Source: a virus
Lineage: Duplodnaviria > Caudoviricetes
IMG/VR virus record: IMGVR_UViG_3300029288_000119
Span: 1-64,000 of that record
Length of the DNA stretch: 64,000 nucleotides
Reading direction: 5' to 3' (one strand)
Part shown: one piece after another, positions 23,693-64,000 of the stretch
Layout: every line of letters begins with the position of its first letter
How positions within the stretch are numbered: position 1 is the first letter of the stretch
Translations under genes and position numbers: made by a program
Notes under the pieces: model-generated
Told to the model about the DNA's origin: nothing
What the model saw: the letters and a program-made list of their open reading frames with translations, nothing else
The model's database searches: none

Positions 23693-23704
23693 GATTTTCC
23701 CCAG

Positions 23705-31354: not shown

Positions 31355-31528
31355 TTATTCATATGCATTAATACCAATTTTTATTTGTGGATATCCATCC
31401 ACCGCTACGTTTCCTTCTGTCGAAGCCACAATTTTTGTTTTACCAGATTTAGATTTGCCAAATCTTTTAGTCAAATCAATTTCAATTACTAGAATATGAT
31501 CTTTACGTTTCATTGTTATGTTTTTCAT
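31355..31528 (-). CDS. Small hypothetical protein
   Basis: SKSGKTKIVASTEGN block; TAATG coupling. Confidence 0.65.
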   Translation of the reverse strand: MKNITMKRKDHILVIEIDLTKRFGKSKSGKTKIVASTEGNVAVDGYPQIKIGINAYE

Positions 31529-42752: not shown

Positions 42753-43373
42753 TCATAACTTTTTCGATTCCATCTTGACAACATTCATTGGATCATATTC
42801 ATAATCCGTATCATCTTTCGAAAAAATCATCCCCCAATGATCGAGTTTCTTCTCTTCTCCTTCTGGAGTCACATTAGAATCATGCCATCTCTTATCGAAT
42901 TCTTCAAAGGGAATATATGCTCTTACGACAGATGATGGATCTTCGAAAATAATTTCTTTGTCAGTATAGCCAACAGCGATAACATAATGTCCTTCATTCC
43001 ATTCTTCAATCCAATCATCTTCATCTTTCTTTTCTTTATCTGGCCAAGCTTGAATGAGCATGAGGACTGGTTTATCTTTATCGAGAAGTTTCTTAAGAGA
43101 GTCAATTGTGAGACCTGTTAACTGCTTCGTTTTGATGCCATATTCTTTCTTAAGAACTTTTTCAATATTTTCTGCTGACGTTCCATCATCTTCACTTACA
43201 TCGAGGCTATCAAGGAGATTTTCTTCTCTTTCATCGATACCAAAGAATGCAAGAATACATAGGACTGCGGAAGCACCACAATCATACGCATAAACTTGTC
43301 GAAACTCAGGAAATTCAATGAGCTTTTGTACATCAAGTTTTCGTTCGAGTATTAAGTCTATTAGTTTTTTCAT
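42753..43373 (-). CDS. Peptidase C39-like cysteine protease with leader
   Basis: Q....DCGAS, GHYVIAVGY, EDPS; MKKLIDLILE. Confidence 0.85.
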   Translation of the reverse strand: MKKLIDLILERKLDVQKLIEFPEFRQVYAYDCGASAVLCILAFFGIDEREENLLDSLDVSEDDGTSAENIEKVLKKEYGIKTKQLTGLTIDSLKKLLDKDKPVLMLIQAWPDKEKKDEDDWIEEWNEGHYVIAVGYTDKEIIFEDPSSVVRAYIPFEEFDKRWHDSNVTPEGEEKKLDHWGMIFSKDDTDYEYDPMNVVKMESKKL

Positions 43374-48456: not shown

Positions 48457-49583
48457 TTTATTTTCCTCAATGAGACATTATTTTGTCTTAATATTTGATA
48501 TATAGAAGCATAACTAATTCCATTAGATAATTTACGTATTTCATCTATTTTTAAATTAGAATTGTATAAATTAACAACTTTTTGCGCATCTATTATGTGT
48601 TTTTTATGATTCTCTCGTAATGTAATATTATTCTTAGCAAGCAATTTATATAAATAATTTATACTTATGTCATAATTATTTGATATTTGTTTGATATCAA
48701 ATCCATTTTTATAGTCTAAAACAATTTTTCTCACATCTAAATCGGACAATTTATTGTTTTGTTTTTTACCGACATCTTTTTCCGCTAATACAAATGATTT
48801 AAAATAAGTCTCCTTACGTGATAGGGATATTGTAGAATTATGATACATTAAATAATAAATTTTAGAAACTTGATTAATGCCACCATAATGAACTGACCAT
48901 GCACCTTTATGTGATATTATTTTTGTTTTATCTAAGCTGCATACATTCATCAACCATAATTGCATTTTTTTACAAAATTCACAATTGGATAAAACAGATA
49001 CATATTTAGTTTTTCCATTATGTACACAACCATCGCCATCAAAATAACCACGAAAGAAATGGATTAATAAGTGCGTTGGAACAATATTTTCAGCAGGCCA
49101 TCGAATTATATTGGTTTTTTTTTGTGGACATCCTTTATTAATTAGATCACGTACCATGGATCGAGAACTTATTATTATTCTAGCTCTTGTTCTGAATTTC
49201 TTATATTTTTTATCGTAAAAAACTTGTTTAGTAATACCATGATTTGAATGAAGACAATTTAAAAATTTTTGTAAATGATTACGATCTTTCCATTGTAAAT
49301 TAATCGCAACACCATCGCGTACCACTGCTCCATCCGCATAAAGAAAACCCAACCAATAAGCTTTCTCTTGAGAATTTATTATTTTAAAAAAATCCCAATT
49401 ACATTGGTATTTATGTGTACCCCATGATTTAGTTAATCCCTGCTTTTTTAACGTTCGATATATTGTTCTATGGCAAATTTTGTATTTATTTTCCAAATTA
49501 CTATATGATAAGCCATTTTTGTAATCTTCACAAATTTCATTTTTTGTGTTTTCTGACATATTATTTATGGTTATTCTATTCAT
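48450..49583 (-). mobile_element. LAGLIDADG homing endonuclease between baseplate genes
   Basis: EKAYWLGFLYADG and HFFRGYFDGDG; paralog of 18115..19329. Confidence 0.88.
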
Positions 49584-49613
49584 GTTGTTTTATTATATAT
49601 CAATTTCTTTCAA

Positions 49614-50099
49614 TTATTGTGCCTCATAAGTCTGAACTGTTAATGTCAACACGTCACTTATATTATCAGCCGATATATTAAATGAATAACTTATCGTTAC
49701 TATAATTTCCGTTTCACTTGGCTCGCGAACACCTACTGGCAGTTGATCTCCACAATAATATACCCCTATTCCATTTATTTTAACAAATTTCATCCATAAG
49801 TTGGTGGATTTTATGATTTCCTCTACAATTGCTTGTTTTAATATATCAGTTTTAGGCTGAAACAATAAATTTAATAAATCACACCCATATGATCTTCTAT
49901 ATATTCTTTCCCCACGTTTTGTTAATAACAAATTTTTTAAATTTTGCCTGACAACTGACGCTACATCAGGATCACTTTCAAATGCATCACCATCATTTGA
50001 TATTGCTAATGGTCTGGCAATATTAATTGTCTGTTTAACAATATCCGTAGTATTACTAGGTGTATATTCATCGGAATACCCATATGTTGATGTTGTCAT
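49614..50099 (-). CDS. Baseplate wedge subunit (gp25/GPW-like)
   Basis: QNLKNLLLTKRGERI...YGCDL..LLF. Confidence 0.9.
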   Translation of the reverse strand: MTTSTYGYSDEYTPSNTTDIVKQTINIARPLAISNDGDAFESDPDVASVVRQNLKNLLLTKRGERIYRRSYGCDLLNLLFQPKTDILKQAIVEEIIKSTNLWMKFVKINGIGVYYCGDQLPVGVREPSETEIIVTISYSFNISADNISDVLTLTVQTYEAQ

Positions 50100-50125
50100 A
50101 TAATAATTATGTGTTATAGAACAAC

Positions 50126-51277
50126 CTAAACTGCATTAGATTTGGTTGCAACTTGCATTGCCGCCGCAACTTCATGTAATTTAGCACTTGCATTTGACAA
50201 TGCAGCTTTTGAAACAGGAGGGGCTCCGGGTAAAGGAGTAAAATCAGCAAACGTAACGGCATCTAAAAATATTGCAATTTGCTCCAAAAGGGAAGGAATA
50301 TCCGGCCCTATTGTTGTAAGAATTTTATTGGTTCCCGAAGGCCCCCCGATAACTGTGGTTCCATCAATAACAACATTATTAGCACGAATTGTTACTTTTT
50401 GGTTGCCTTCAATTTCAATGTTACCCTCTTTATTAAATTTTATTTTCACCCCACCGTCTTTCGACTCGACAAGAATGTTTTTTCTTGCAATCAAAGCATT
50501 GTTGTCGCTCTTTATGTACCAAAGAGCTTCTTCCTCCTGATTACCAAGACCATTTATCATGTTGCTTTTAGAAGAAATATATATTCTTGACTTATCATTC
50601 TCAAAATCAGGATCACCATTTTCTTTTTGAACACCAACGACTATATCTATCGCTTCCCCATCCTCATATCCGCTATCTGTTGTATCTCTTCTATCATTTC
50701 CTAAAACTATACGTCCTGTATTTTTACTGGATATTAAATGATCTTGAATTCTTTTTTCAAAATTTATTCTTTTTTGTAATTTTGGCTTAAATTCATCAAT
50801 AATAGATTGCAAATCTTCCTGAGATGCCACAATGTCATTGATCGACAAAGTATTAGATTGGGATTCAACACCAAAAGCTTCCGCTGCAGAATTATCTGAG
50901 GTATTTTGCGTTAAATCTTGACCAGCATCAACGTAGCTTTTATCTATATTTGGCCATCGACTGTACCAAAATCCATAATCGAGTGAATCTTTTTCATATA
51001 TGACAGAAACACTTTCCATTGGAGCTACTGGTGGTGTATCATAGTCATTAATTGGCCACACAATGGTAAATCCGGAATCATTCATATTAATTTGTGGTTT
51101 ATAAATTTTTACTTTTAGTGCACCAATCGGACTCATACCATTATTGAATAATCCACCTTTTGTATCTACCTCGTATACCAACGCTCTATATAATATATAA
51201 TTGCTTACGTCGTTCAAATTACTTTTCATAGTCCTTTGAAATATCGTAAACGGATTACGAGCAGTTGTAGTAACCAT
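50126..51277 (-). CDS. Baseplate hub/spike-like protein
   Basis: N-terminal OB-like region, beta-rich C-terminus, next to gp25. Confidence 0.6.
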   Translation of the reverse strand: MVTTTARNPFTIFQRTMKSNLNDVSNYILYRALVYEVDTKGGLFNNGMSPIGALKVKIYKPQINMNDSGFTIVWPINDYDTPPVAPMESVSVIYEKDSLDYGFWYSRWPNIDKSYVDAGQDLTQNTSDNSAAEAFGVESQSNTLSINDIVASQEDLQSIIDEFKPKLQKRINFEKRIQDHLISSKNTGRIVLGNDRRDTTDSGYEDGEAIDIVVGVQKENGDPDFENDKSRIYISSKSNMINGLGNQEEEALWYIKSDNNALIARKNILVESKDGGVKIKFNKEGNIEIEGNQKVTIRANNVVIDGTTVIGGPSGTNKILTTIGPDIPSLLEQIAIFLDAVTFADFTPLPGAPPVSKAALSNASAKLHEVAAAMQVATKSNAV

Positions 51278-51279
51278 GA

Positions 51280-51564
51280 TTAGCTCACTTTTTCGTTAAA
51301 TTGAACAGGAATTGCGTTGGCTATATCTGTATAGTCTTCATTCTGTGGTTCTGATTTTTTAATAGCAAGACGTGCACGTTCGATCTCTAGTAACATCGAA
51401 TTCATTCTACATAACACTTCGCTGATCTTGCTAACCGTTCCGCCAACAACAGAAAATTCAGCACTATCATTAACTTGAACTTTTTGTAACATGTTTAACA
51501 AATATTGCCGATCATTGAGGATTTTTTCTTCTACCTGTTCAAAATTTTTTTCTTTTTTAGTCAT
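51280..51564 (-). CDS. Hypothetical protein
   Basis: ATAATTA 7 nt upstream. Confidence 0.55.
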   Translation of the reverse strand: MTKKEKNFEQVEEKILNDRQYLLNMLQKVQVNDSAEFSVVGGTVSKISEVLCRMNSMLLEIERARLAIKKSEPQNEDYTDIANAIPVQFNEKVS

Positions 51565-51570
51565 CTCAAT

Positions 51571-52356
51571 TTAATTATTCATTATCCATTTGTTTTTGAC
51601 ATCATAATATATTTTTTTCAATCTTCCAAGAGACAATGATATTTGTTTTGGTGTCATCCCTAGCATATCTCTCAAATATATAATCGCCGCTTTCCTATTA
51701 TGTATATCTATTTCATCTATATGATTCAACAAATGAATAACACCATTCAATACTTTGGCATCACGATCTACACAATAATTTTTAATTTCACCAAAATTAT
51801 CTATTAAAAATACAATAAAATCCTTATCAAAAAATTGATATTCACACTCATCGTATGTTGATTTCGATTTCTCTCTGACATAATTTTTTACTTGTGTTTC
51901 ATCTGTCGAAACAAATTTTTTCTCCGATCTTTTAACAATATTGTGTTGCTGGAACAACCAATTTTTGGCTATAATATTAAAATATGAAAAAGCTGTTTCT
52001 GGTCTATTAGTGTCGAATGTTTCTATTTTCATAAACAAAAATCTTACACAATCATCTCTCAAATTTGACACATTATCTAAACCATTTACCTTATATACGA
52101 ATATCAAATTGCTAGCCAGGGCTATAAATGGTTTTTTTAATTCATTTTCAAATATAAGACTTTTTTGTTTTGGATCCTTACATTTAATAAATTTTGCAAT
52201 TGAATGACCAGTTTCTTTTGTAAAATAATTTTTGCGTTTTCCACTTTTTGTCGTACAGAATTTTTTTCTTTTCAGATATTCCTGTTCTCTAATCTTTTTT
52301 CTTTGTTCCTTTGTTAATTTTTTATTTTCCTCACCCTTTTTTTTCTTCCCGAACAT
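51571..52356 (-). CDS. Phage late sigma factor (T4 gp55-like)
   Basis: NYFT, LASNL, DDCV..L...I.TFD, AFSYFNIIAKNWL (sigma region 2 like). Confidence 0.75.
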   Translation of the reverse strand: MFGKKKKGEENKKLTKEQRKKIREQEYLKRKKFCTTKSGKRKNYFTKETGHSIAKFIKCKDPKQKSLIFENELKKPFIALASNLIFVYKVNGLDNVSNLRDDCVRFLFMKIETFDTNRPETAFSYFNIIAKNWLFQQHNIVKRSEKKFVSTDETQVKNYVREKSKSTYDECEYQFFDKDFIVFLIDNFGEIKNYCVDRDAKVLNGVIHLLNHIDEIDIHNRKAAIIYLRDMLGMTPKQISLSLGRLKKIYYDVKNKWIMNN

Positions 52357-52530
52357 TTACACTTACCAATTCTTTGATCCTATACACATTTTTCTATGTA
52401 GTTATAGGTATCACATATACCTACATTATACCACAAAACAATTATCTTGTAAGTTCAGGCTACTAATATAGCTTGAAGTTCCCGGAAGACCAAGGAAAAG
52501 CCAGGGAGATATATTTTATATTATACGTCT

Positions 52531-52797
52531 TTAAACTTGAGAATGAGGAAACAGATCTTTAAGTTGACCATATCTATCTTTAGTGGCTCTAACTCGTCTG
52601 TTGAAAGCAACAACCCAACTGTCGTTCATTAGCAGATGTTTTTCGGTCATTCTTTCAAAAAATCGATAGTCATCTTGTATTTTATCATATTCTTCATCAA
52701 GAAATCCTACCAATTTTGTGTGGGCAATATAAAACCTTACATTTAATATTAAACTTGCAACCAATAATATAGATATAATGATTATTGTTATTATCAT
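52531..52797 (-). CDS. Membrane-anchored protein
   Basis: N-terminal TM helix followed by a helical region. Confidence 0.55.
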   Translation of the reverse strand: MIITIIIISILLVASLILNVRFYIAHTKLVGFLDEEYDKIQDDYRFFERMTEKHLLMNDSWVVAFNRRVRATKDRYGQLKDLFPHSQV

Positions 52798-53441
52798 TTT
52801 ATTTTTGGGTGTGTTGATGATACTTTTACGTGTCTTTTTATTTTGGCATAATCTTCTAAGATATCAACAATTTCTCGCCAATTTTTTACCCTTATGATTT
52901 TATCTTTTATGTCGTTTGGTAAATCACGATTATAAATATGATCGAACACTATTACTTTCTTCCCAGATTTTATAATATTTTCAATCGTGCTTGGTTTATC
53001 CTCGATATAAATATCACAATCTACTTTTTCTTTTTCCGATGTACAATACATTTGATCATATTTAATTTTATGGATTTTGAGCCATTTTACCGTATCCTTT
53101 AACAGATCATCAGTTGCTTGGTCTGTAACAATATTAATATCATATCCAATGGCTCTTAGTCTCGAAATTGCTTCTTGAACATAATCATAGGTAGGAGCTT
53201 TCACCATAACTTCTGAATGATGATCATAAATCCAAAATTGGTTAATTTCTTCTGGAGACAAATTTTTGAATGATTTTGTGATATTATAAAAGCGAAAATC
53301 TTGAGTATTTGTCCTTTCATTACCTAATACATCAATTTTGACAGCAGGAATGTGCTTTTTAAATGTTGTAATTATTGAAGATATAAAATTTCTGAGACAT
53401 CCGTCTACATCTACGCTAAGCCTTGGCAATTTATTTTCCAT
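52794..53441 (-). CDS. 5'(3')-deoxyribonucleotidase (HAD, NT5C-like)
   Basis: DVDGCL, IVT, T.KWL, YIEDKP, YNR. Confidence 0.85.
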   Translation of the reverse strand: MENKLPRLSVDVDGCLRNFISSIITTFKKHIPAVKIDVLGNERTNTQDFRFYNITKSFKNLSPEEINQFWIYDHHSEVMVKAPTYDYVQEAISRLRAIGYDINIVTDQATDDLLKDTVKWLKIHKIKYDQMYCTSEKEKVDCDIYIEDKPSTIENIIKSGKKVIVFDHIYNRDLPNDIKDKIIRVKNWREIVDILEDYAKIKRHVKVSSTHPKIK

Positions 53442-53512
53442 AGTATGCCCTTTCTTATATAATCATCCTTCAATTTCAATTATACTAACTTAAAACAAAT
53501 TTGTTATGTATG

Positions 53513-56485
53513 CTAACTCCTTCTAATTCCCGTTCCTAATGTACTATATATTGCAACATTTTTTGGTAACATATGCGGTTTTTTATTTCGCTCCAGTAAA
53601 TGACTTTCTATTACCTTTTCTTCTCCAATAAAACAAGTTCTGGCTGGTATTAATTTTTCAACAATCGACATGTAAAATTTGTCAACACCGGAAATATTGT
53701 TGAAATAATTTATAAATGATATGTTCCCGGATAATCTGGTAAAATATGGCTCTACAAATTGTTTTAAGCTATATTCGTTTCTATATTCAAGTCCAGGAAC
53801 ACCAATAATATAGCTCACTTTATTTGTTTTATCAAACAACCTAATCATATCCCTATTCAATGCATCTATCGCATTATATTCCATGGACATCATATCAACT
53901 CTATCATAGTCAACATTAATATTGTCATGTTCTCCATAAATTATGTCATTCGTATTCCACTTTAAAGAAATATCTGGACACAAATGTTTATATTCAAACA
54001 AACTGGAATAAAAATTACCAGTTGTTGATGGGGCAAAATTTAAACCAGTAACATCAACCATTGATTTATAATAACCATAATTTGTAATGTTTTGTATTGT
54101 TCCGCTTGTATTGGATTGTATACCATCGTCTAATATCCAATGCCCAATTAACTTTACATAATCATATTCCGGATTGACAGAACCAACTGATGTTAAATCA
54201 TAACAATGTGAATTCAATTCAGTATCTATTAATAATTTATCCCATAATCTGAACTCTGATTGTACAGTTTCGGTCTGTTTTCCTAAACTTCCAGAAAATG
54301 CTCCAACATATAAATAACCATTAAAAGATTCAGTAATAAACGCCCCGACACTAGAACAAATTGATTGGATTTCTTCTGAAGTTGGATCATATTTTTTAAT
54401 ATCAAGATAGTGTATTGGTATAATTTTGTCGATATTTCTTCTATATGATATGTTATAATATTCACCATCAAAAATTTCTATTAATGATGATGTTAATCTT
54501 TGAATTACACCCTCACTTGATCCGCTAGTTTCAATATAAACATTACCATACGATGAAGTAAGATCCCGCTCAAATGCCAAACATATCTCGCCACCAAGTG
54601 TGTGTTTAATACCCCATATTGATCCAGTTGTAATATATGGTTGACTTGTAACTATCGTTTCAAAGAATGTCCCGGATTCATATGACAAATATGGTTTAAA
54701 CGAAACCAAAGTTTCAATAGACAATGAATTAGTTAATTGATACGGCAATTGTGACGCAGACATAATAATACATGATGCAGTTGAATGTGCATTTGTACCT
54801 TCAATATCTTCTAAATCTGGTTTACCACCAAAATTTAATATTTTTACATACCTTGAATCACCAATATATGAACTAGTTATTGGATAAGAATATGTTGAAT
54901 CATAGTCCTTAACTGAAATTATTTCATTATTTAACCCAACACAGTGCATAAATGCATCAATCGATTCTTTTGTTCCCTTTGTTTTATATACATATGTAAT
55001 GTTAGAAAGTATATTCCTCCAAAATATTTCATTTATGTCTTTAATTGAATATAATATGTTATTACTTGCTGAATGTTGTATAAAATATTCAGCTATCGTG
55101 GCAGTTGGGAAATTATCAAACGATTCTAAACCGTATAATTTAATGGCTGTTTGTAATAATTTGTATGGAACATTTTCCGCATTGTGGAAATTCTTAATCT
55201 CTTGAACATGTATTTTAATTTCGTCCAACTGTCTGGCGAATAAATATAATAAATTCGTAAGGTTATATGATTTTAAAGATTCCTCTTCATCTAAGTATGA
55301 TTGTGGAATCAAATTAGTAATCATATATCTATTTGTTGAATCATATTCTTTAGCAGATTCCCAAATAGTATTAATATGTGTTACTACATCGGAATAATCA
55401 TCTAAAACAATTGGATCATAATAATCATATTCATCAGACATTATACTATCGCCAGATGATCCAACTAATGAACCAGACACCTTATTTGCGGCGCTATAGT
55501 TCTGAATTCGAAGATCTATTGGATTTTTAGCATAATCATAAACAACATTATATAATGATCCATCACTCGTTATATAGTGTGGTTCATTAAATTTAACATA
55601 AAGAACAAGTTCTGGCTCCCAGTGAATGTGTCTGTTATAATATTCAGCAATTTGCTCAGATGTTCTATATGAATTCCATATTCTTAATTCATCAAGCGAT
55701 CCTTCAAGATATTCCCCAATTGGAGGACCTGGAGGGGGTTCCGGAGATCGAGATCCAATATAAACACCAAGTGATCCTGTTTCCAAAATAAGATGACCAA
55801 TTGGACTTGACGAAGTTACAAGAGCAAGTTCCCCATCAACATAAGCTCTTGTCTCGGCACTAGCGGAAGAATAACAAAAAGCAAAATGGTGTCCAACATT
55901 ATAATACGAATTAGAAAATGGACAAGAAGCGGAAAAAATTGTAGATCCTGATTGAACTCTAAAAATCATTTCATTCGATGCTGATAAAAAGACTTCATAA
56001 TATAATTGATCAAAATCCCGACCCCGTTTAACTATGTATTGATTAGGATAACCGGGTGCATAAGATGCTGTTAATTGACAACAAAATTCTATGGATAAAG
56101 AATTATCCGATGAAGTAAGAGACATTTTATTTTCATAATCAGCCCCAAATATATAAGAGTTTGATCCACTATTAAAAAAGTGACCTGAATATGATGGAAA
56201 TTTTTTAAATGAATATTTTTCAAATCCATTTAACGTATCCCACCAAGACATCCATTCATTCCACGACCATGTGCGATTATATTCGTTAAACAATCTCCAT
56301 AAAAAAATATTATATTTTGAATATGCGCTTTGGTATGTAGTGTGATTTGACCATTCGGAATAATCTATCTTTTCACCCGGCAAATTATATGATTTAAGGT
56401 ATGATTCGAGAATAGCTGAATTTTCGGCTGATGAACTTAGAAAAGAAAGATCTAGGGGATAATCGGATCCGCGAAAAGATGTCAT
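53513..56485 (-). CDS. Large virion/baseplate protein with LamG-like domains
   Basis: HHFAF, YVDG, GSLDELRIWN, KTKGTKESI; late motif upstream. Confidence 0.7.
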   Translation of the reverse strand: MTSFRGSDYPLDLSFLSSSAENSAILESYLKSYNLPGEKIDYSEWSNHTTYQSAYSKYNIFLWRLFNEYNRTWSWNEWMSWWDTLNGFEKYSFKKFPSYSGHFFNSGSNSYIFGADYENKMSLTSSDNSLSIEFCCQLTASYAPGYPNQYIVKRGRDFDQLYYEVFLSASNEMIFRVQSGSTIFSASCPFSNSYYNVGHHFAFCYSSASAETRAYVDGELALVTSSSPIGHLILETGSLGVYIGSRSPEPPPGPPIGEYLEGSLDELRIWNSYRTSEQIAEYYNRHIHWEPELVLYVKFNEPHYITSDGSLYNVVYDYAKNPIDLRIQNYSAANKVSGSLVGSSGDSIMSDEYDYYDPIVLDDYSDVVTHINTIWESAKEYDSTNRYMITNLIPQSYLDEEESLKSYNLTNLLYLFARQLDEIKIHVQEIKNFHNAENVPYKLLQTAIKLYGLESFDNFPTATIAEYFIQHSASNNILYSIKDINEIFWRNILSNITYVYKTKGTKESIDAFMHCVGLNNEIISVKDYDSTYSYPITSSYIGDSRYVKILNFGGKPDLEDIEGTNAHSTASCIIMSASQLPYQLTNSLSIETLVSFKPYLSYESGTFFETIVTSQPYITTGSIWGIKHTLGGEICLAFERDLTSSYGNVYIETSGSSEGVIQRLTSSLIEIFDGEYYNISYRRNIDKIIPIHYLDIKKYDPTSEEIQSICSSVGAFITESFNGYLYVGAFSGSLGKQTETVQSEFRLWDKLLIDTELNSHCYDLTSVGSVNPEYDYVKLIGHWILDDGIQSNTSGTIQNITNYGYYKSMVDVTGLNFAPSTTGNFYSSLFEYKHLCPDISLKWNTNDIIYGEHDNINVDYDRVDMMSMEYNAIDALNRDMIRLFDKTNKVSYIIGVPGLEYRNEYSLKQFVEPYFTRLSGNISFINYFNNISGVDKFYMSIVEKLIPARTCFIGEEKVIESHLLERNKKPHMLPKNVAIYSTLGTGIRRS

Positions 56486-56492
56486 ATACTAA

Positions 56493-57779
56493 TTATCTAT
56501 GATTCAAAAGCCCCAACTTTTCCAAATTATCAACTGATAAAAATACACTATCATCAATATTTTTCCACGTCCCAAGAAATAGTCCGGAGAATTTAATTTT
56601 GTAAGTTTCGCACATTTTTCTGAATTCTGTCGTAAAAATATTTTTAATTAACCACGAAATAACCTTCGGTGTTATTACTTCCTTAGGTGTTCTTTTCCCT
56701 TTTACAGCGGAGTCAACAAAATTCATAAAATTGATACTTAAATATATGTCGTCCCCAGTATTATTATAAATCATTGATTCAAAAAGATTTTCTTTTGAGA
56801 ATGTATAAACTCTTCTAGGAAGTTTAGATAGTGACGTTAAAATTGCTGGATCTTTGGTAATGTCTTCCCCACATTGTTTAGAAATTTCTTCCCATGTAAT
56901 TTCTTCTTGATCGTTATAACATCCACCAGAGTCGCCTTTGATAATTTCCCTATCCATTTCTGGTGTTTGTTGCCACTTATCCCACGTTAAAATTTCGCCA
57001 GTCTTCTTGTTAGTGTATTTGTTCGAATTAACACGTATTGGAAATGAACGATAATTAAGAATAATTGGACCGACAGTCCATGGTGGTAACATGGAATCAT
57101 CAAGAAACGCGGCAACAGAACAATTCCTAGATGTTGTTTTTGGCCAAAATTTACTATATAAACTAAGTTGCCAACCCTGAGCAATTTCACCAAGTATCGA
57201 TTCACCATTAATCAGACGGTTTATTATTTTTTCTTGTGTATTTATTAAATAACTCTCAAGACCGGATATATCTTTTGCTATTATCGCATCTTCTCTACGT
57301 AATAATCGGCGTGCTCTACTACTACCCACTCCATGAAGTGTAGACCCTATTTTTAAATTGATACAATCTCTGTTCTGTTTTTTGTTCCCGTCAAAATCAA
57401 CCAGACCCTTTTCGTAATCAACGTCTGTATCAGAAACAATCGCGCAATTTGGGTGGATTTTTATTTTGTCTGGATTGAAATGATATTTATCTATTTCATT
57501 TAAAAAAGTGCGCGTAGCAAATACACAACCCGGTGACAAATATTGTTCTTCATAATCATTTAAAGAAGTAATACTACTTAAACATTGATGTACAAATTCG
57601 CGACCATCATCATGAATTATTGTGTGTGCTGCGTTCTCCATAAATGTATTAACGGCTGATTTTGTGTGGTCTTGTTTAAAATGTTTCCAAACATAAGCAC
57701 CGCGAGATCCTTTTGCAGAACTACCAGCACCACCATCAAGAACAACGGTAATTTTCCCCGGTTTAAAGACTGGCTGCAT
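56493..57779 (-). CDS. purZ: PurZ-type adenylosuccinate synthetase homolog (2-amino-deoxyadenylosuccinate synthase)
   Basis: GSSAKG (Ser where PurA has catalytic Asp), NAAHT, IGST, QG..LS, FPIRV, SG.CY.D, KLPRRVYTFS, NF. Confidence 0.85.
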   Translation of the reverse strand: MQPVFKPGKITVVLDGGAGSSAKGSRGAYVWKHFKQDHTKSAVNTFMENAAHTIIHDDGREFVHQCLSSITSLNDYEEQYLSPGCVFATRTFLNEIDKYHFNPDKIKIHPNCAIVSDTDVDYEKGLVDFDGNKKQNRDCINLKIGSTLHGVGSSRARRLLRREDAIIAKDISGLESYLINTQEKIINRLINGESILGEIAQGWQLSLYSKFWPKTTSRNCSVAAFLDDSMLPPWTVGPIILNYRSFPIRVNSNKYTNKKTGEILTWDKWQQTPEMDREIIKGDSGGCYNDQEEITWEEISKQCGEDITKDPAILTSLSKLPRRVYTFSKENLFESMIYNNTGDDIYLSINFMNFVDSAVKGKRTPKEVITPKVISWLIKNIFTTEFRKMCETYKIKFSGLFLGTWKNIDDSVFLSVDNLEKLGLLNHR

Positions 57780-57800
57780 TATCGTCTCTTTCTACCCCAC

Positions 57801-58172
57801 TTATTCAACCTCAACACGAATTGCTGGTATCGATCTCACATCGTTTTTCCCATTGCCATATGACAATTTTTTCGATTCTATGTTTATTAATTCCTGTTTA
57901 TGTCTATTTAGTTCTTCCATAAGAAATTGCTTCATGGCTATGGCTGTTTCAATATCAATTGTGCATCTAGATTTATCATTAATAATTTGTTCCAATTTTC
58001 CAACATCAATACTCATGGCCTCTATATCTTCAAGATGCCTGCTTGCTTCATTATGCCAAAACCAGGAATACACATCATCATAAATTTTTTCTTTTTTTAC
58101 CTCATGTCCATAATTTATTAATTGATAAATTCTTGATGCCATATCGGACAATTTAATTCGTTCTTTTGACAT
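57801..58172 (-). CDS. Hypothetical protein
   Basis: AAGGAG SD; directly upstream of purZ. Confidence 0.6.
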   Translation of the reverse strand: MSKERIKLSDMASRIYQLINYGHEVKKEKIYDDVYSWFWHNEASRHLEDIEAMSIDVGKLEQIINDKSRCTIDIETAIAMKQFLMEELNRHKQELINIESKKLSYGNGKNDVRSIPAIRVEVE

Positions 58173-58202
58173 GTTCTCTCCTTATTTTAACACATTACAA
58201 TT

Positions 58203-58388
58203 CTAATCGTGAAGTATTTGTCGTCCGGTAACAACAACTTCACTTGATTCGCGTGGATTTATTTTTTCAAAATTTTTACACCCACAATTTGGGCATGCTA
58301 TCAAACACATACAATTTTCACAACATTTCTCACCGTCTACTTTTCTTTGATATATGGCCCCGCATTCAAGGCATTTTGCTAACATCAT
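58203..58388 (-). CDS. Zinc-ribbon protein
   Basis: CLEC, CENC, CPNC. Confidence 0.6.
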   Translation of the reverse strand: MMLAKCLECGAIYQRKVDGEKCCENCMCLIACPNCGCKNFEKINPRESSEVVVTGRQILHD

Positions 58389-58401
58389 GTCAGCTCCCTA
58401 T

Positions 58402-58668
58402 TTATTTAGATTGACGACCAGTTCCTTGACCAGTCCCAGCATTTGGTATCATAGATCTTAACTGTTCAATTGCTTGAATCAACGTGGTAAGTCTATCCTC
58501 ATGATTTCTAATAAGTGTTTGCACATTTAGATTGTCTTGCTCTAAATCTTTAATTTTTGCCTTTAATGATTTAATTTGCGCTTCGGTCGTTTGTACTACT
58601 GCCATGTTTTCACTCTCCTCTTTCTTCCCTATTTTTATGGTGGGTTTCTTTTTAAATGGCCACCACAT
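58402..58668 (-). CDS. Coiled-coil protein
   Basis: Heptad pattern; alternative start at MAVV with GAGGAG SD. Confidence 0.55.
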   Translation of the reverse strand: MWWPFKKKPTIKIGKKEESENMAVVQTTEAQIKSLKAKIKDLEQDNLNVQTLIRNHEDRLTTLIQAIEQLRSMIPNAGTGQGTGRQSK

Positions 58669-58717
58669 TTCACTTTATTGTGCTTTCTTTTCTTAATTTC
58701 ATTAAAAACATTTTACA

Positions 58718-58993
58718 CTATTTGAGCAAAATTGATTTAAGAGATAAACAATCTCTTATTATATATTCACAAATTTTGGCCTGAATGCTACCACATACTA
58801 TATGATATTCGTTTTTAGTTTTTGCTTTCGAATCAATTAAAACATTTAATTTTACAAAATGATTATATGTAATATTTAAATTATTTTCAAGCAATGGTGA
58901 TGTAGCATCGAATATTAATTCTGCTGATATTAACCGAGCCGGGTCTTTTTCAATCAACAATTTTATTCGTTTGTCTAAATTTTCTATGTTCAT
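58718..58993 (-). CDS. Hypothetical protein
   Basis: GAGG SD. Confidence 0.55.
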   Translation of the reverse strand: MNIENLDKRIKLLIEKDPARLISAELIFDATSPLLENNLNITYNHFVKLNVLIDSKAKTKNEYHIVCGSIQAKICEYIIRDCLSLKSILLK

Positions 58994-59000
58994 TTCTACC

Positions 59001-59642
59001 TCACAATTTCCAAACTAACATATTCATAGTCGTGCCATTATTTTCATATCCCAATAATTCGTTATCATACACAATACATTTTGATTGGTCAGAAACGGTG
59101 CTATTTGCTATGTTTTCTAAAATTTTTGAATTCAAATCCATGTTTATCGATGGCGTCTTAATATCCTTCAATTTTAGATTAAAAACATCGGTAAATTCTT
59201 TCTTTATTATATTGGCACACAAAATAAATCCGCCTTTTTTAGTAATTCTATACATTTCTTCGAAAGTAGCTACACATTCATCGATATTCAAATAATTAAA
59301 AAGCGTATTACAAAACGATCTATCAACAGATTCAGTTTTTAATTCAACATTAAAAACATCGTTTAATAACAACATAGAATTTTTTGACAAATTGTTATTA
59401 ACATGTTCACTACAAAAATCGATTCCAACAGTTCTACCACTTTCGGAGTTACCTTCAATAAACGATAATAAAGCGCCATTACCACAGCCAAATTCTGCAA
59501 TTATGTCGGTTTTCCGACTGTTGATTTGGTAAAGTATAGATCGCCCTACATATTCTGGCAAATATTCAAATACAGAATTTAATTTATTCCGATCATCTAA
59601 ATTTTTATCAGAAATCCAAAATTCCATCCACTGTTTGGTCAT
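59001..59642 (-). CDS. Class I SAM-dependent methyltransferase
   Basis: AEFGCGNG, GIDF, EEMYRITKKGG; no DPPY/NPPY motif. Confidence 0.85.
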   Translation of the reverse strand: MTKQWMEFWISDKNLDDRNKLNSVFEYLPEYVGRSILYQINSRKTDIIAEFGCGNGALLSFIEGNSESGRTVGIDFCSEHVNNNLSKNSMLLLNDVFNVELKTESVDRSFCNTLFNYLNIDECVATFEEMYRITKKGGFILCANIIKKEFTDVFNLKLKDIKTPSINMDLNSKILENIANSTVSDQSKCIVYDNELLGYENNGTTMNMLVWKL

Positions 59643-59646
59643 ATTA

Positions 59647-59985
59647 TTATGCTTTCACTTTAGATTGATATTGGCATGGAGGACGACCAGATTGTACATT
59701 TAATCTTCTACTAGCTTCTACCAGACCCGATACAACAAATTCAGCTAAAGTTAGACGTGTTTGTCGTTCTTTATATGTTCCTTGTGGATATCTAAATTTT
59801 ATTAATATTTCTTTAATTGTCATCGGGTTCTTGTATATCATAGATATTAATCTTTTGCATTCGCTTCTGTTTAACATTTTATAATGTGGTCGTCTATATG
59901 ATTCAACAACATCATACCATGTTCGATATAATGACTTTATAATTATCAGAATATTTTTTTCTGGAATTTCTATAACTTTTTTCAT
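59647..59985 (-). CDS. Winged-helix protein
   Basis: PMTIKEI...LAEFVVSGLV...GRPP..Y. Confidence 0.55.
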   Translation of the reverse strand: MKKVIEIPEKNILIIIKSLYRTWYDVVESYRRPHYKMLNRSECKRLISMIYKNPMTIKEILIKFRYPQGTYKERQTRLTLAEFVVSGLVEASRRLNVQSGRPPCQYQSKVKA

Positions 59986-60287
59986 TTTATAATTGGTTCA
60001 ATTGATTCCATAACATCGGCAAGCTCATTACCATCAATTTGTTTTTTCACAGCACTTATTGCAACTGCAATTAATTTTCCATCTAATGAAAATTTCTTTA
60101 TAAATTCCTTCTTCATATCATTTTTTTCTTGTCTTAACGTATCTAACTGGTCATCAATTTCGCATATGCGCGTGACGAGAGCCTTAATTGCGTCTTTCTT
60201 GTCCTTGATTTCCTCATCATCATTGTTTAATTTTTCGGCAACTGAATCTTTCGACATTTTTGTTTCCTTTCTAAAATAGTGTAACAC
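59982..60287 (-). CDS. dsDNA-binding protein (T4 DsbA/GapR-like)
   Basis: IKALVTRI.EIDDQ...LRQE..DMKKE....LDGK; true start probably MSKD. Confidence 0.6.
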   Translation of the reverse strand: MLHYFRKETKMSKDSVAEKLNNDDEEIKDKKDAIKALVTRICEIDDQLDTLRQEKNDMKKEFIKKFSLDGKLIAVAISAVKKQIDGNELADVMESIEPIIK

Positions 60288-60302
60288 AACAATATAAAAA
60301 TG

Positions 60303-60626
60303 TTATTGTGGTGGTTCACCGATAATAATTTCTACAATGCCAGCTTCTTTTGCGGCCTTAGTACAGTCATTGCAAGCATATGTATGTCCAACAACATATA
60401 ATTTTCCACCATTTGCTTTATTACCTGCGGACGCAATTGCATTTATTTCAGCATGTGCTGATTGTTTGCAAATTGACTTGCACAACTCATAGCCCTCACC
60501 AGTTTTCATACCAATGCGTGGGCAAATTTTTTGCGGATCGTGACAATAATTTGTAGAAACAAATTTACATCCATCCACTGCTATTATCGTTGCAATGACA
60601 GTTTGTTTTGCACATGGACCAATCAT
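60303..60626 (-). CDS. dCMP-deaminase-like protein
   Basis: CAKQTV.A, HAEINAI, YACNDC, AGI. Confidence 0.8.
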   Translation of the reverse strand: MIGPCAKQTVIATIIAVDGCKFVSTNYCHDPQKICPRIGMKTGEGYELCKSICKQSAHAEINAIASAGNKANGGKLYVVGHTYACNDCTKAAKEAGIVEIIIGEPPQ

Positions 60627-60955
60627 CTATTGTCTCCGCTTCCACTAAGAACACCACGCTCCTTACGTGAATTTAATTTCAGCACATTTTCTTCCATTGC
60701 CAATTGCAGTGATATACCAGTTTCTTCACAAATTCTACTAAGATAAAATAAACAATCACCTACTTCGCCGATAAGTTCTTCTCTCTTTTTATCAGTTATT
60801 TTACAATCATCATCCCTTATGGTTTTTTTGATTTTCCCACAAAGCTCCCCACATTCGGAAGCCAAACCAAGAGCCACATATTCTATTGCCCGATTTTTTG
60901 GATAAATACACACACTTTGCGTCCATTCCTGATATTCTTTTAAATTATAACCCAT
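60623..60955 (-). CDS. MazG-family NTP pyrophosphohydrolase
   Basis: LGLASECGE, KIKK.IRD, EVGDCLFY, N..KL.SR..RG...GSGDNR. Confidence 0.9.
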   Translation of the reverse strand: MGYNLKEYQEWTQSVCIYPKNRAIEYVALGLASECGELCGKIKKTIRDDDCKITDKKREELIGEVGDCLFYLSRICEETGISLQLAMEENVLKLNSRKERGVLSGSGDNR

Positions 60956-60978
60956 TTAACACTCCCCTATTCTCTGTT

Positions 60979-61317
60979 TCACATCAGCGGTAAAATGTAA
61001 TGCTCGAATACTTTATCTTCATTTCCTTCTTCAAAAAATTTTATATAAAACGATTTGCCTTCTGTTTGCCGATCATTTATTGTAATCCTTATTTTAGAAT
61101 CTCCATTAAATTTATCACAAATAAACATGGCTCGCCTAATTAACCATTCTGGTTTAATATTATAATATGCTTCTATGTCCTCTAAAAATTCTAAAGTAAA
61201 TGAAACTCGTCCTTTACAACAATCTGGAGATATTATTTGCAAAACATTCTTTTCTTTATCAAATTCAATCATATTACCAAATTGCTTCTGAATTTTTTTA
61301 ATTCGCTCTTTTGTCAT
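60979..61317 (-). CDS. Hypothetical protein
   Basis: Coupled ORF. Confidence 0.55.
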   Translation of the reverse strand: MTKERIKKIQKQFGNMIEFDKEKNVLQIISPDCCKGRVSFTLEFLEDIEAYYNIKPEWLIRRAMFICDKFNGDSKIRITINDRQTEGKSFYIKFFEEGNEDKVFEHYILPLM

Positions 61318-61706
61318 TTAATTCTCCATTCTTCCTGTCGCCAAGGATTGACTCCTGCAATGATTGCCGCCCATTCTTCAAAAGTCGGATTTCTAAATAT
61401 ACCACTTGGTTCAGCCTCATATTCGTGTCCATCTACCATAGAATGATCATAATTAATGAATTTTCCTTCCCAAATAGACAAACCAAACGGAGCATCGTCT
61501 AATCCCAAGTCCGCTAAATTAAAACCGACGGATTCCGTTTCGTTTACAATGTGCCCACCAACATGCCATAAAATGCAGCCATTTCCTTGACCATTGCTAG
61601 CGATAACAGCAAGAGAATCTTTATCTAAATCCCAATCTCCTGGATGTAATTTTTTCTCTTCATCATCCAAATTTAACTTCGTTGGAATTTTTAATAGACC
61701 ACCCAT
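61314..61706 (-). CDS. Hypothetical protein
   Basis: GGAG SD; GLSIWEG...FRNPT.EEW. Confidence 0.6.
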   Translation of the reverse strand: MGGLLKIPTKLNLDDEEKKLHPGDWDLDKDSLAVIASNGQGNGCILWHVGGHIVNETESVGFNLADLGLDDAPFGLSIWEGKFINYDHSMVDGHEYEAEPSGIFRNPTFEEWAAIIAGVNPWRQEEWRIK

Positions 61707-61710
61707 TTCG

Positions 61711-61914
61711 TTATTTACTCCGTTTGTTAATCATTTGGTCAAATAATTTTTTGTCATCCTTCGGAATATGTTTTTCAATCCACTCTCTCAAAGCTTCATC
61801 AGCGATATCTTTAACCATTCTTTTATATTGAACCGCCGCCAATCGAACTACCGAATAGAGATTTTCGGACACCCTAATCATTTCATCTTCTTTTCTGGTT
61901 GGCTTGTCTATCAC
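61711..61914 (-). CDS. Ribbon-helix-helix DNA-binding protein
   Basis: MIRVSENLY..VRLAA......KDIADEALREWI; AAAGGAG SD before GTG. Confidence 0.6.
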   Translation of the reverse strand: MIDKPTRKEDEMIRVSENLYSVVRLAAVQYKRMVKDIADEALREWIEKHIPKDDKKLFDQMINKRSK

Positions 61915-61964
61915 AATACTACTCCTTTCCAATACCAAGAAACCATTTCAATAATAATTATTTT

Positions 61965-62918
61965 ATGGAACAAAAATTACCACCACAAGAAAATGAAACC
62001 ATAGAAGAAAAGAAATGTAAAGTAAGTGGGATATATTTGATTAGAAATTTGGTGAACAATAAAATTTATATTGGATCTGCTGTAAATATTAAAAATAGAT
62101 GGTATCGTCACAAAAATCAACTAACAACAAATAAACACAAAAATCCTTATCTCCAAAGTGCTTGGAACAAATATGGAATTGGGAATTTCTCTTTCGAAAT
62201 TGTCAGTAAACTTCATTTTATTGACAAAAACAAAGAACTGTCAAAACAACACATTCTTGCTAATGAACAAATCTATTTAGATCTTTATGAAAGTTATAAA
62301 AGGGAAAAGGGATACAATATTAACAGAATAGCCGGGAATAGTCTAGGACTTAAACATTCCGAAGAATCTAAAATAAAAATGAGGGAATTTCAGAACAGAC
62401 CGGAAGTAATCGCAGCCAAAAGAAACAGAATACCATGGAATAAGGACAAACATTTGTCAAAAGAATGTATAGAAAAAATGAGGAACAGAACTCCGTGGAA
62501 TAAAGGCAAGCACATGTCCGAAAAAACTAAAGAAAAATTAAGTGAAATAAATCGTGGCAGCAAAAATCCTAGATATGGTAAATATAATGGACATCCGATA
62601 TCAGAATCAACAAGAAACAAATTATCTATTCTTCTTAAAGGTAAGAAACCATGGAACAAAGAACTTCGTGGTATAATACATCAGTCGGCTAAAGCCAGAG
62701 AAACAAATAGGTTGGCACATTTAGGATCAAAAAACCACATGTATGGCAAGTCGCCTTCTACAGAAACAAGAAAAAAATTAAGCATAAAAAATAAGGGTCA
62801 AATACCATGGAATAAGGAACAAAAATTATCAGAAGAGCACAGAAAAAAGATTGGCGAAAAAACAAGAGAAAATCATCGCAAATTGGGGCATAAAACAAGA
62901 ATTCCAAAAGAAAAATAA
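61965..62918 (+). mobile_element. GIY-YIG homing endonuclease with NUMOD3-like repeats
   Basis: SGIYLI...KIYIGS, R...H, E, GYN; repeated PWNK and xxKLS units; ATAATTA-N4-ATG. Confidence 0.92.
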
Positions 62919-63029
62919 GTGAATCATTGAAAGCCAGTAATAATACCTCTGGTCGTTTTCAAAAGGGTTTTACTCCATGGAACAAAAAGCCAGAAGAAAA
63001 ACAAAAAAGAATGTCAAGAATCAAAAAGA

Positions 63030-64000
63030 TCAGGCGACAATCCTGAAAGTTCCAAACTTCATGTTTGAGTAACCCCATTGATCTTCATATGAAATATCCA
63101 AAATTATAACAGAACCCTCCTCAATTATTGAAGCATCAAAACTACTATCCATATTCCATGGCCACAATTTTATGGGATGAGAATTTGTTCCATCATTTAT
63201 TGTGACGATATGGTATTTTTTGCCAGACTTTGTAAGTTTATCTACAATTTTTTCAACATAACCACCAACACAACCGGATCGATCAATATCATTAAATTGC
63301 TTAATTCCATTACGTGCAAATACAGTTTTTATTACTTCAAATTCATCAGATAAAATTTGATGCAAATCGTAACCAAGATAAGTTTTATACAATTTACTTT
63401 TTTCTTTTTTATTTAATTCTCTATTCTGATTACTATCCAAAATTTGATAAATTTGTTCTTCTGGAACTTTTGACTTTTTGCCCCGTTTTTTATTCTCTAG
63501 CAATTCCTCAACGAAAGCACAACAACTTTTCCTTGTCCAGCCAAATTCATCAAAAGCTCCAATTCCAGCAAGAATATTAATACCTTTTTTGTTTAACTTA
63601 GACCAAGACATAGAAAAGAACGACCTGAAATCATTAATATTTTTTTTATGAATTTCTAATTCTTCATAGGCTTTAGGTCCGAATCCTTTAGCTAAAACTA
63701 AACCCAATCTTATGTTTCCATCCTCCGGTTCACATTTGTATCGTGATTTTGTTACACTAAATGGAAGAATTTTAATGTTATGTTTTTTCGCGCTCATCAT
63801 ATATCTGCGCAACTTGTCATCGTCTTCGGTCCTGCTTATTAGACACGTGTAAAATTCTACCGGATAATAATACTTCAACCAAAGACACATTACTGTTATA
63901 TAACCGTATGATAAACCATGTGCTCTATTGAATGAATAACCTGTAAAGTTAAGCAAATAAAGTAGCGTTTCCTGTTTTTCTTGTTCCGCTAATTCTGGAT
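63030..64000 (-). CDS. dnaE: DNA polymerase III alpha subunit, C-terminal part (5' end outside window)
   Basis: YSFNRAH..SY, WLKYYYPVEFY, IRLGL..AKG.G, GAFD, terminal OB fold; frame open to the window edge. Confidence 0.92.
   Translation of the reverse strand, partial: PELAEQEKQETLLYLLNFTGYSFNRAHGLSYGYITVMCLWLKYYYPVEFYTCLISRTEDDDKLRRYMMSAKKHNIKILPFSVTKSRYKCEPEDGNIRLGLVLAKGFGPKAYEELEIHKKNINDFRSFFSMSWSKLNKKGINILAGIGAFDEFGWTRKSCCAFVEELLENKKRGKKSKVPEEQIYQILDSNQNRELNKKEKSKLYKTYLGYDLHQILSDEFEVIKTVFARNGIKQFNDIDRSGCVGGYVEKIVDKLTKSGKKYHIVTINDGTNSHPIKLWPWNMDSSFDASIIEEGSVIILDISYEDQWGYSNMKFGTFRIVA

Follow-up and report, generated by a model that had tools for sequence, protein, structure and literature searches.

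The ORF at 56493–57779 of the window (the whole 64,000-nucleotide stretch analysed, positions 1 to 64,000 of IMG/VR record IMGVR_UViG_3300029288_000119) encodes a protein that, judging from its sequence, lies inside the ATP-type PurZ radiation and groups with neither PurZ0 nor PurA. PurZ is the enzyme by which small phages swap adenine for 2-aminoadenine (Z) in their DNA; the protein described here belongs to a large, phage-only subfamily. On balance, we think it slightly more likely than not that it is a working PurZ of this large-phage subfamily, that it serves a route from dGMP to dZTP, and that Z is placed in the DNA by the phage's DnaE, perhaps as a partial substitution. The features discussed here are:

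56493–57779, minus strand: putative PurZ-like succino-amino-deoxyadenylate synthase, large-phage subfamily (PF00709, motifs, tree, AlphaFold model)
57801–58172, minus strand: 123-aa protein immediately upstream of purZ (no Pfam or PHROG match)
59001–59642, minus strand: class I SAM-dependent methyltransferase, 213 aa (PF08241, E 6.5e-11)
60303–60626, minus strand: dCMP/cytidine-deaminase-like zinc enzyme, 107 aa (PF00383, E 7e-7)
60623–60955, minus strand: MazG-type NTP pyrophosphohydrolase, 110 aa (PF03819, E 2e-8; phrog_229, E 6e-32)
63030–64000, minus strand: C-terminal part of DnaE, a family C polymerase (PF14579)
52794–53441, minus strand: NT5C-family 5'(3')-deoxyribonucleotidase, 215 aa (PF06941, E 2.8e-14)
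9858–10109, minus strand: small all-alpha MazG-like pyrophosphohydrolase, 83 aa (MazZ-2-slot family)

The PurZ-like ORF (428 aa, no internal stops) has the adenylosuccinate-synthetase fold by its Pfam match (PF00709, E 3.8e-12), and the layout and PurZ hallmarks that the initial annotation had described are present exactly as given: GSSAKG (residues 19–24), PIRV (247–250), KLPRRVYTFS (319–328), and the NF of INFMNF (349–354). An insertion of about 30 aa, around residues 251–281, follows PIRV, and ranges from 30 to 60 aa across the subfamily. The AlphaFold (AF2) model has a pLDDT of 88.9; its best PDB structure match by Foldseek is phiVC8 PurZ (6FM1; E 9e-24, TM 0.84, 25% identity), although Pyrococcus PurA matches the fold equally well (TM 0.85). 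A sequence search of the PDB also returned phiVC8 PurZ as the best match (2e-24), followed by Pyrococcus PurA (3e-16) and PurZ0 (9e-8).

Clade positions are given here in S-2L numbering (PMC8342488). Ser23, at the site of PurA Asp13, occurs in 40 of 40 clade members and falls within GSSAKG in the window protein; a serine stands at this site in 100% of phage PurZ sequences, the aspartate is kept in 99% of PurA sequences (PMC12884076), and PurZ is reported to lose its substrate selectivity when the Ser is changed to Asp (preprint). Phe306 is found in 39 of the 40, the remaining row being gapped there, and K26, H52, T132, R146, Q190, T205, R240, V/I241, T273, T276, R280, R281, N305, and Y/F309 are likewise conserved in the clade. 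The base pocket is ATP-type (N-F-x-N/Q/D-Y, not the GTP-type TKLD), formed in the window protein by N350, F351, N353, and F354; the adenine-pocket Phe site holds Met in PurZ0 and Lys in E. coli PurA. Leucine occupies the PurA Arg303 position in the window clade, and both PurZ0 and PurA depart from the clade at the P-loop, TKLD, and GWxD. Two features count against a PurZ reading: the glycine of NAGH is alanine (NAAH) in the window protein, and the large insertion adjoins the Val that selects the sugar. In the aspartate loop, T-S-L-S/T takes the place of T-T-V-T. The PurZ identity initially proposed is thus upheld by the defining substitutions and by placement in the ATP-type radiation, but not by the curated NCBIfam model NF038379, on which the window protein scores 126.9 bits against a cut-off of 300 (clade members 117–146; true PurZ and PurZ0 350–421).

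PurA was considered as an identity and rejected, as Asp13/GDEGKG, TKLD, and GWxD are absent and GSSAKG, NFMNF, and TFS stand at those sites. The PurA models give the window protein 102 bits (archaeal NF003295, cut-off 368), similar to its PurZ-model score, and 44 bits (TIGR00184, cut-off 396). PurZ0 was also set aside: the GSE[AG]KG P-loop and GTP-type pocket are missing, and PurZ0 forms its own clade in the tree (support 99). In this tree (a quick search rooted on E. coli PurA, with no archaeal PurA among its rows), the window clade of 41 rows (support 99) is nested in an 82-row clade (98 SH-aLRT) with the PurZ of phiVC8, S-2L, and SH-Ab 15497, in line with the initial annotation.

With the PurZ (DgsS) of these three phages (PDB 6FM1, 7ODX) the protein shares the fold, the Ser at Asp13, the N-F-x-N-Y/F adenine pocket, the SGxxYxDQxExTWE segment, RRVxTFS, and the joint clade. 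It differs from classical PurZ in its identity of only 24–27%, its insertion, its longer C-terminus, and its position below the HMM cut-off, and the subfamily occurs in 170–340 kb genomes, with DnaE or PolB rather than DpoZ/PrimPol and without datZ or mazZ-1. PurZ0 (Arthrobacter phage Wayne, Gordonia phages; PDB 7VF6) also has Ser at Asp13, and its phages, in parallel with the subfamily, have non-DatZ helpers, among them the NDT-family DmtZ (PMC12884076); unlike the window clade, however, PurZ0 retains the GTP-type T-M/L-x-D, GDWD, and GSEAKG. Archaeal-type PurA (Pyrococcus horikoshii, PDB 5K7X/2D7U; NF003295) resembles the window protein in its short-form fold and similar HMM score, but has Asp13 and GTP specificity, both lacking in the window protein.

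At 90% identity the subfamily forms 149 clusters, with contigs of up to 385 kb, and it has a single match among 185,579 species genomes. In a search of 1.84 billion representatives, none of the best 150 relatives has the PurA-type Asp, and wherever the P-loop could be read the residue is Ser or Gly. When this phage is compared with two complete 320–341 kb genomes that have a subfamily PurZ (G002 and G003), the PurZ-like protein shows 46% identity, whereas DnaE shows 23–28% and RecA 35–37%; by these identities it is strongly conserved. Some copies in the subfamily contain inteins. New here are a lineage with a DnaE module, replacement of the gene at a fixed locus, and the copies with inteins.

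The contig (93,502 bp; about 33% G+C, 67% A+T) is 39% complete by CheckV, which gives an estimated genome of about 240 kb. The jumbo size originally proposed is thus an estimate, with which the contig's T4-type baseplate and TubZ/PhuZ-like genes agree. Upstream of purZ on the same strand lie genes for the methyltransferase, the deaminase-like enzyme, MazG, and a complete DnaE; the co-orientation of DnaE, MazG, and deaminase with purZ noted earlier is real, and domain matches were obtained for all three. It was incorrect, however, that purZ ends this minus-strand run, as a 990-aa gene starts 7 bp 3' of it and minus-strand genes carry on beyond. The whole DnaE (63030–66509, minus strand; 1159 aa, with its C-terminal 322 aa inside the window) combines PHP, DNA_pol3_alpha, finger, and HHH_6 domains in one ORF (Pfam). 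Its pairing with a subfamily PurZ recurs in both complete genomes and, as the initial annotation supposed, is an uncharacterised combination in the literature searched.

Several neighbouring genes are shared with a syntenic relative, L017. The MazG, which may supply dGMP, remove dATP, or do both, is 82% identical there; in G002, where a MazG lies between the DnaE halves, the identity is 50%. As a MazZ-1 it was rejected (hhalign against the MazZ-1 profile, probability 3.9%). The deaminase-like protein, with intact HAE and CxxC zinc motifs, is 74% identical in L017, the 123-aa protein 55% (syntenic), and the NT5C protein 76% (syntenic); it is speculative that the last removes a dNMP. The methyltransferase (59%) is common to L017 only, not clade-wide. 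An MT-A70 N6-adenine methyltransferase gene is also on the contig and would be odd if adenine were fully replaced.

Genes for DatZ, MazZ-1, and DpoZ occur in 0 of 31 subfamily neighbourhoods, while classical PurZ loci have DatZ in 27 of 44 and DpoZ in 33 of 44; the Z-cluster placement (datZ with mazZ or DUF550, usually dpoZ) is likewise absent from the 31 clade loci. Profiles for the three proteins found no match in the 93.5-kb contig, G002, or G003, and the positive control worked. The absence of a DatZ-like HD protein reported for the window thus extends to the whole contig, where the DatZ profile, including its HDxxE..GDxPxPxK signature, has no match. An HD protein of 258 aa (contig 80296–81072) was considered as DatZ and rejected (hhalign probability 4.8%). 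Looking for datZ and mazZ beyond the first reading recovered neither DatZ nor MazZ-1 on the contig, but did recover the MazZ-2-like gene at 9858–10109, 46 kb from purZ. In 18 of 44 classical loci an ORF near purZ is 37–46% identical to this one, and in 17 of them the family lies directly 3' of, and abutting, purZ; the window ORF also matches phiVC8 p26 (E 1.9e-5), located between purZ and datZ. The family occurs in Bacillus phages that are not among the PurZ matches as well.

Other helpers recur. In 12 loci an NDT-like gene lies 1–2.5 kb from purZ, and G003 has one too; five loci have guanylate kinase within 10 kb of purZ, and two more have PurB. NDT enzymes have been tied to dZ phages, where such enzymes clear dAMP or dA (PMC12884076; 10.1101/2025.10.22.683976). 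Searches of the 93.5-kb contig gave no PurB, DUF550, or NDT, and neither MazG nor PurB is detectable in the complete genome G003. Given the missing usual helper genes, Z in the DNA of this phage is plausible rather than established.

We infer the following route. The PurZ-like enzyme would phosphorylate O6 of dGMP using ATP (or dATP, which S-2L PurZ consumes; PMC8342488), and aspartate would displace the phosphate, giving N6-succino-2-amino-2'-deoxyadenylate and so committing the nucleotide to dZTP synthesis. The remaining steps would need adenylosuccinate lyase and kinases, supplied by the host or by the roughly 60% of the genome outside the contig; relatives encode a PurB and a guanylate kinase of their own. 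The MazG and MazZ-2-like pyrophosphohydrolases might supply dGMP, and DnaE would insert Z opposite T. As there is no DatZ-type dATPase, adenine exclusion, if any, would take another route: relatives could cleave dAMP with NDT-type enzymes, and this phage might rely on MazG, NT5C, or the use of dATP by PurZ. Substitution may be partial.

It is also possible, if rather unlikely, that PurZ chemistry operates without bulk replacement of adenine, with some Z placed beside A or the Z nucleotide serving to drain dGTP/dATP pools or evade nucleotide-sensing defences. Such a role would be consistent with the lack of DatZ, DpoZ, and MazZ-1 in every clade genome examined, the two complete ones included, with the lack of detectable MazG and PurB in G003, and with the MT-A70 gene; in the Z-phage literature read, the pathway includes a step that removes dATP or dAMP (DatZ, DutZ, DmtZ). 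To our knowledge, however, Z nucleotides have no other use, and the NDT-like genes beside purZ, the YfbR-like hydrolase of Flavobacterium phage MaF61, and the consumption of dATP by S-2L PurZ all argue against this reading. An ATP-using PurA analogue converting (d)IMP to (d)AMP, and so acting as an auxiliary metabolic gene that enlarges the adenine nucleotide supply of a phage with 67% A+T, would suit the base composition, the PurB of some relatives (needed equally for AMP synthesis), and the near-equal model scores and fold matches. We consider it quite improbable, because Ser replaces catalytic Asp13 in every clade member, because that exchange bears on selectivity, because Leu takes the place of Arg303, the PurA residue in contact with the ribose 2'-OH, and because linkage is to guanylate kinase and NDT genes rather than to adenylate kinase.

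A shifted substrate, with GMP in place of dGMP or another amine in place of aspartate, might instead begin a different modified purine that the neighbouring methyltransferase perhaps finishes. The insertion after the sugar-selecting Val, the altered aspartate loop and NAAH, and the conserved small-molecule-type methyltransferase in the same module could reflect this, but R280, R281, T273, and T276 are kept, KLPRR is identical to S-2L, the PurB of relatives points to a succinyl intermediate, and the methyltransferase is restricted to L017; we regard this as very doubtful.

Returning to the PurZ reading, characterised Z-genome phages in the literature searched are small sipho- or podoviruses replicated by DpoZ or PrimPol, with DatZ/MazZ or DutZ/DmtZ as PurZ partners. 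We suggest, tentatively and at less than even likelihood, that a widespread lineage of large and jumbo phages swaps A for Z by means of subfamily PurZ, non-DpoZ polymerases (here DnaE), and DatZ-free exclusion through NDT-type dAMP cleavage, MazG-type hydrolases, or nucleotidases. If the subfamily makes Z, Z-DNA would reach 170–340 kb myoviruses and DnaE and PolB replicases, with a third independent route of adenine exclusion; a non-canonical genetic alphabet would then be known to be more widely distributed, and new enzymes for Z-DNA production would be at hand. Jumbo size itself is shared with contig G005 (IMG/VR 3300037110_000087, 307 kb), but its PurZ belongs to a neighbouring 'mid' clade and, unlike the window phage, it lacks DnaE and has a classical Z-cluster, in which DatZ and MazZ-1 lie no more than 8 kb from purZ. 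One phage with a subfamily member is already in culture: MaF61 (PQ858689), a T4-like myovirus whose ORF141 (E 1e-46) has all the motifs as well as the insertion. ORF141 is about 30% identical to the window protein and, unlike the window phage, MaF61 has a 168 kb genome with a PolB-type polymerase and encodes its own PurB, guanylate kinase, and YfbR/DatZ-like HD hydrolase.

The window covers the opening 64 kb of a 93,502-bp IMG/VR contig. CheckV places this contig at 39% completeness, which implies a genome of ~240 kb. The open reading frame at 56493-57779(-) is stop-free, encodes 428 amino acids, and contains GSSAKG, PIRV, KLPRRVYTFS, and INFMNF; the motifs quoted in the initial annotation, including an NF loop, are thus present as described. 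Its product matches Pfam Adenylsucc_synt; PHROG 1211, a second match, carries a PurZ-type synthetase annotation. The MazG, deaminase, and DnaE reported as co-oriented with purZ do all lie upstream on the minus strand, but purZ is not the final gene of that run, as had been supposed: a 990-aa gene begins 7 bp past its stop codon. The heptamer ATAATTA overlaps this stop codon and is not enriched across the whole window (34 observed versus 40 expected). Features on the upstream side of purZ are as follows.

Upstream of purZ, minus strand: hypothetical protein, 123 aa
59001-59642, minus strand: class I SAM methyltransferase
60303-60626, minus strand: deaminase with intact zinc motifs
60623-60955, minus strand: MazG, 110 aa
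61899-62918, plus strand: GIY-YIG homing endonuclease with NUMOD3, between MazG and DnaE and adjoining dnaE
Contig 63030-66509, minus strand: complete DnaE, 1159 aa, of which the C-terminus alone falls within the window

The window phage represents a distinct lineage, in which the PurZ-like gene is housed in a DnaE–MazG–deaminase–methyltransferase module. Elsewhere, the contig encodes an RNR large subunit, DnaB, FEN, RecA, a gp32-like protein, and a T4-type baseplate protein, together with two features beyond the window.

Contig 67583-68161, minus strand: MT-A70 family N6-adenine methyltransferase, just past dnaE
Contig 79130-80299, minus strand: TubZ/PhuZ-like tubulin (PF00091 plus a TubZ C-terminal domain)

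TubZ/PhuZ-like tubulins are typical of jumbo phages, and the other contig genes listed here are compatible with a large myovirus. The MT-A70 methyltransferase would be unexpected were adenine wholly replaced by 2-aminoadenine (Z).

PurZ chemistry is the best-supported function of the window protein. In a residue alignment, the phage-only clade to which it belongs has every derived feature that sets ATP-type PurZ apart from PurZ0 and PurA, including the following.

P-loop: GS[ST]xKG, a derived feature of ATP-type PurZ
Base pocket: N-F-x-N-Y/F, where PurA has TKLD
Segment SGxxYxDQxExTWE: likewise derived in ATP-type PurZ
RRVxTFS, where PurA has RRxGWxD

Scoring of the ligand contacts listed for S-2L PurZ (PMC8342488) across 40 clade members found S23, K26, H52, T132, R146, Q190, T205, R240, V/I241, T273, T276, R280, R281, N305, and F306 (S-2L numbering) each kept in 37-40 of them, and Leu occupies the PurA Arg303 position in the clade, as it does in S-2L. 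The clade differs in having Ala at the Tyr21 position, Ala or Ser in many members at the Gly of NAGH, an aspartate loop reading T-S-L-T rather than T-T-V-T, and a 30-60 aa insertion directly past the Val that discriminates against the 2'-OH. The phylogeny proposed in the initial annotation (IQ-TREE on 93 sequences, with E. coli PurA as the root and no archaeal PurA) groups the window protein with PurZ: its clade (41 rows, support 99) is nested within one of 82 rows (98) in which all three characterised PurZ also fall, and PurZ0 forms a separate clade (99). An exhaustive HMMER search of 1.84 billion representatives stands in for the missing archaeal PurA; among the 150 best relatives, every readable P-loop has Ser or Gly and none has Asp. 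A search with the PurZ0 of phage Wayne returned PurZ0 proteins only.

Among solved structures, the window protein is nearest in sequence to phiVC8 PurZ (2e-24), followed by Pyrococcus PurA (3e-16), S-2L PurZ (1e-12), and PurZ0 (9e-8). It scores 126.9 bits on the NCBIfam PurZ model versus 102 on its archaeal PurA counterpart; clade members score 117-146 bits on the former and about the same on the latter. Known proteins used as calibration (PurZ from phiVC8, S-2L, and SH-Ab 15497; PurZ0 from Wayne and Galactica) reach 350-421 bits, and the model cut-off is 300 bits; by the curated definition, therefore, the window protein falls outside PurZ. A confident AlphaFold model (pLDDT 88.9) has phiVC8 PurZ as its best match by E-value; in TM-score, PurZ and archaeal PurA are not distinguished (0.84 versus 0.85).

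Genomic neighborhoods (+/-10 kb) were compared between 44 classical PurZ loci and 31 clade loci. DatZ occurs in 27/44 of the former and DpoZ in 33/44, versus 0/31 for each in the clade. Profiles for DatZ and MazZ-1 had no match in the complete jumbo phage genomes G002 and G003 or anywhere on the 93,502-bp contig, extending to the whole contig the earlier observation that no DatZ is visible in the window; the same profiles, rebuilt without the control's own rows, recovered both genes in a third large phage genome, G005 (1e-18, 4e-16). PurB (PF00206) is absent from the contig, as is DUF550 (PF04447), the search for which had no positive control; neither MazG nor PurB was detectable in G003. Candidates on the contig were rejected: a weak HD protein at 80296-81072 is not DatZ-like, a weak PolA-like ORF at 81076-82212 is not DpoZ-like, and the 110-aa MazG is not MazZ-1.

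Other potential partners recur within parts of the clade. An NDT-like protein (PF15891/PF05014) is encoded 1-2.5 kb from the PurZ-like gene in 12 loci, and away from it in G003; NDT-family enzymes have recently been linked to Z-phages as removers of dAMP or dA (PMC12884076; 10.1101/2025.10.22.683976). Between the NDT-like and PurZ-like genes of locus L006 lies a conserved ~240-aa protein (8156-8869(+)) with homologues in 13 clade loci; by sequence it matched nothing in Pfam, PHROG, or the PDB. In the window, an 83-aa ORF at 9858-10109(-) resembles phiVC8 p26. It also shares 37-46% identity with small ORFs located close to purZ in 18 of the classical loci, and in 17 of these the small ORF abuts purZ (the MazZ-2 position). 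The family is not exclusive to Z-phages, since 17/24 of its isolate-phage matches are Bacillus phages not among the PurZ matches, and its support is therefore modest. On the branch that includes Flavobacterium phage MaF61, 5 loci have guanylate kinase, which reportedly phosphorylates dZMP, within 10 kb of the PurZ-like gene, and another 2 have PurB there. The cultured MaF61 itself carries a full pathway set: PurB, guanylate kinase, a MazG-like protein, thymidylate synthase, DHFR, RNR, and a YfbR-like HD hydrolase that hhalign aligns with the DatZ profile at 84.5%.

DnaE accompanies the PurZ-like gene in the window contig, in the syntenic locus L017, and in G002 and G003, and is absent from MaF61 and the comparison genome G004. 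In both complete jumbo genomes, it is split into two ORFs (G002:161407-165237 and G003:172227-176532); a MazG 50% identical to that of the window lies between the G002 halves. G005 (IMGVR_UViG_3300037110_000087; 307 kb, 98% complete) is a jumbo-phage contig with a classical Z-cluster: at 233965-242103, a "mid-clade" PurZ has DatZ and MazZ-1 no more than 8 kb away. Its purZ adjoins RNR; G005 lacks DnaE and encodes a PolA-like protein of 979 aa.

From sequence, it is plausible that Z reaches the DNA of the window phage to some extent. Full substitution is disfavored by the lack of a DatZ-type dATPase, by the MT-A70 N6-adenine methyltransferase on the contig, and by the fact that no partner gene is shared by the whole clade. 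Use of the enzyme product that is only partial, or not genomic, has a low but appreciable probability. An ATP-using analogue of PurA is improbable, disfavored by the invariant Ser and by the loss of Arg303, and a shift in the substrate of the enzyme is less probable still.

The subfamily comprises 149 clusters at 90% identity, with contigs up to 385 kb and ~54 representatives at E <= 1e-30. Of the IMG/VR loci that carry it, at least 30 in number, two belong to genomes that are complete and have terminal repeats: G002, at 341 kb, and G003, at 320 kb. Among 185,579 species genomes there was a single match, in a Pirellulales MAG (441-kb contig) whose own PurA is frameshifted; among isolate phages, the gene occurs solely in MaF61, and the paper describing that phage does not discuss DNA chemistry. 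Rarity among isolate phages probably accounts for the lack of this subfamily in the PurZ literature searched, in which we found neither a jumbo- or huge-phage PurZ nor one alongside DnaE.

The PurZ-like protein is 46% identical between the window phage and G002/G003, compared with 23-28% for DnaE and 35-37% for RecA. Positions 1-21202 of L017 (IMGVR_UViG_3300032516_000101) are syntenic with window 46693-64000 across the DnaE-to-NT5C module and beyond, and other module proteins are mostly 50-82% identical; the PurZ-like gene that L017 has at this position is just 41% identical and belongs to a different subclade, which suggests gene replacement at a fixed locus. Further, eight of the ~54 closest representatives (P0242, P0245, P0246, P0248, P0251, P0253, P0257, and P0262) have lengths of 750-824 aa, their PurZ-like sequence being interrupted in frame near residues 207-222. 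In the single copy examined (L035:3521-5893(+)), the ~370-aa insert holds a LAGLIDADG (I-SceI-like) endonuclease and is probably an intein.

Additional features are scattered across the contig.

Window 5135-6400, plus strand: LAGLIDADG homing endonuclease with HTH domains
Contig 69818-70495, minus strand: second LAGLIDADG homing endonuclease, adjoining the RNR gene
Window 42753-43385, 39116-40210, and 23767-24462, minus strand: C39 peptidase and two proteins with SprT-like zinc-protease domains
Window 23704-23776, minus strand: single tRNA-Met (CAT anticodon)
Window 26001-27575, 28223-29479, and 31528-32787, minus strand: three clustered glycosyltransferases (one GT2, two GT1/GT4-like)
Window 3113-5077, minus strand: NAD-dependent DNA ligase with BRCT domain
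Window 12620-13678, minus strand: Rnl-type RNA ligase
Window 16703-17797, minus strand: polynucleotide kinase-phosphatase

Possible targets of the glycosyltransferases include DNA, the virion, and the host surface. The ligases and the polynucleotide kinase-phosphatase look like an RNA/tRNA repair set.
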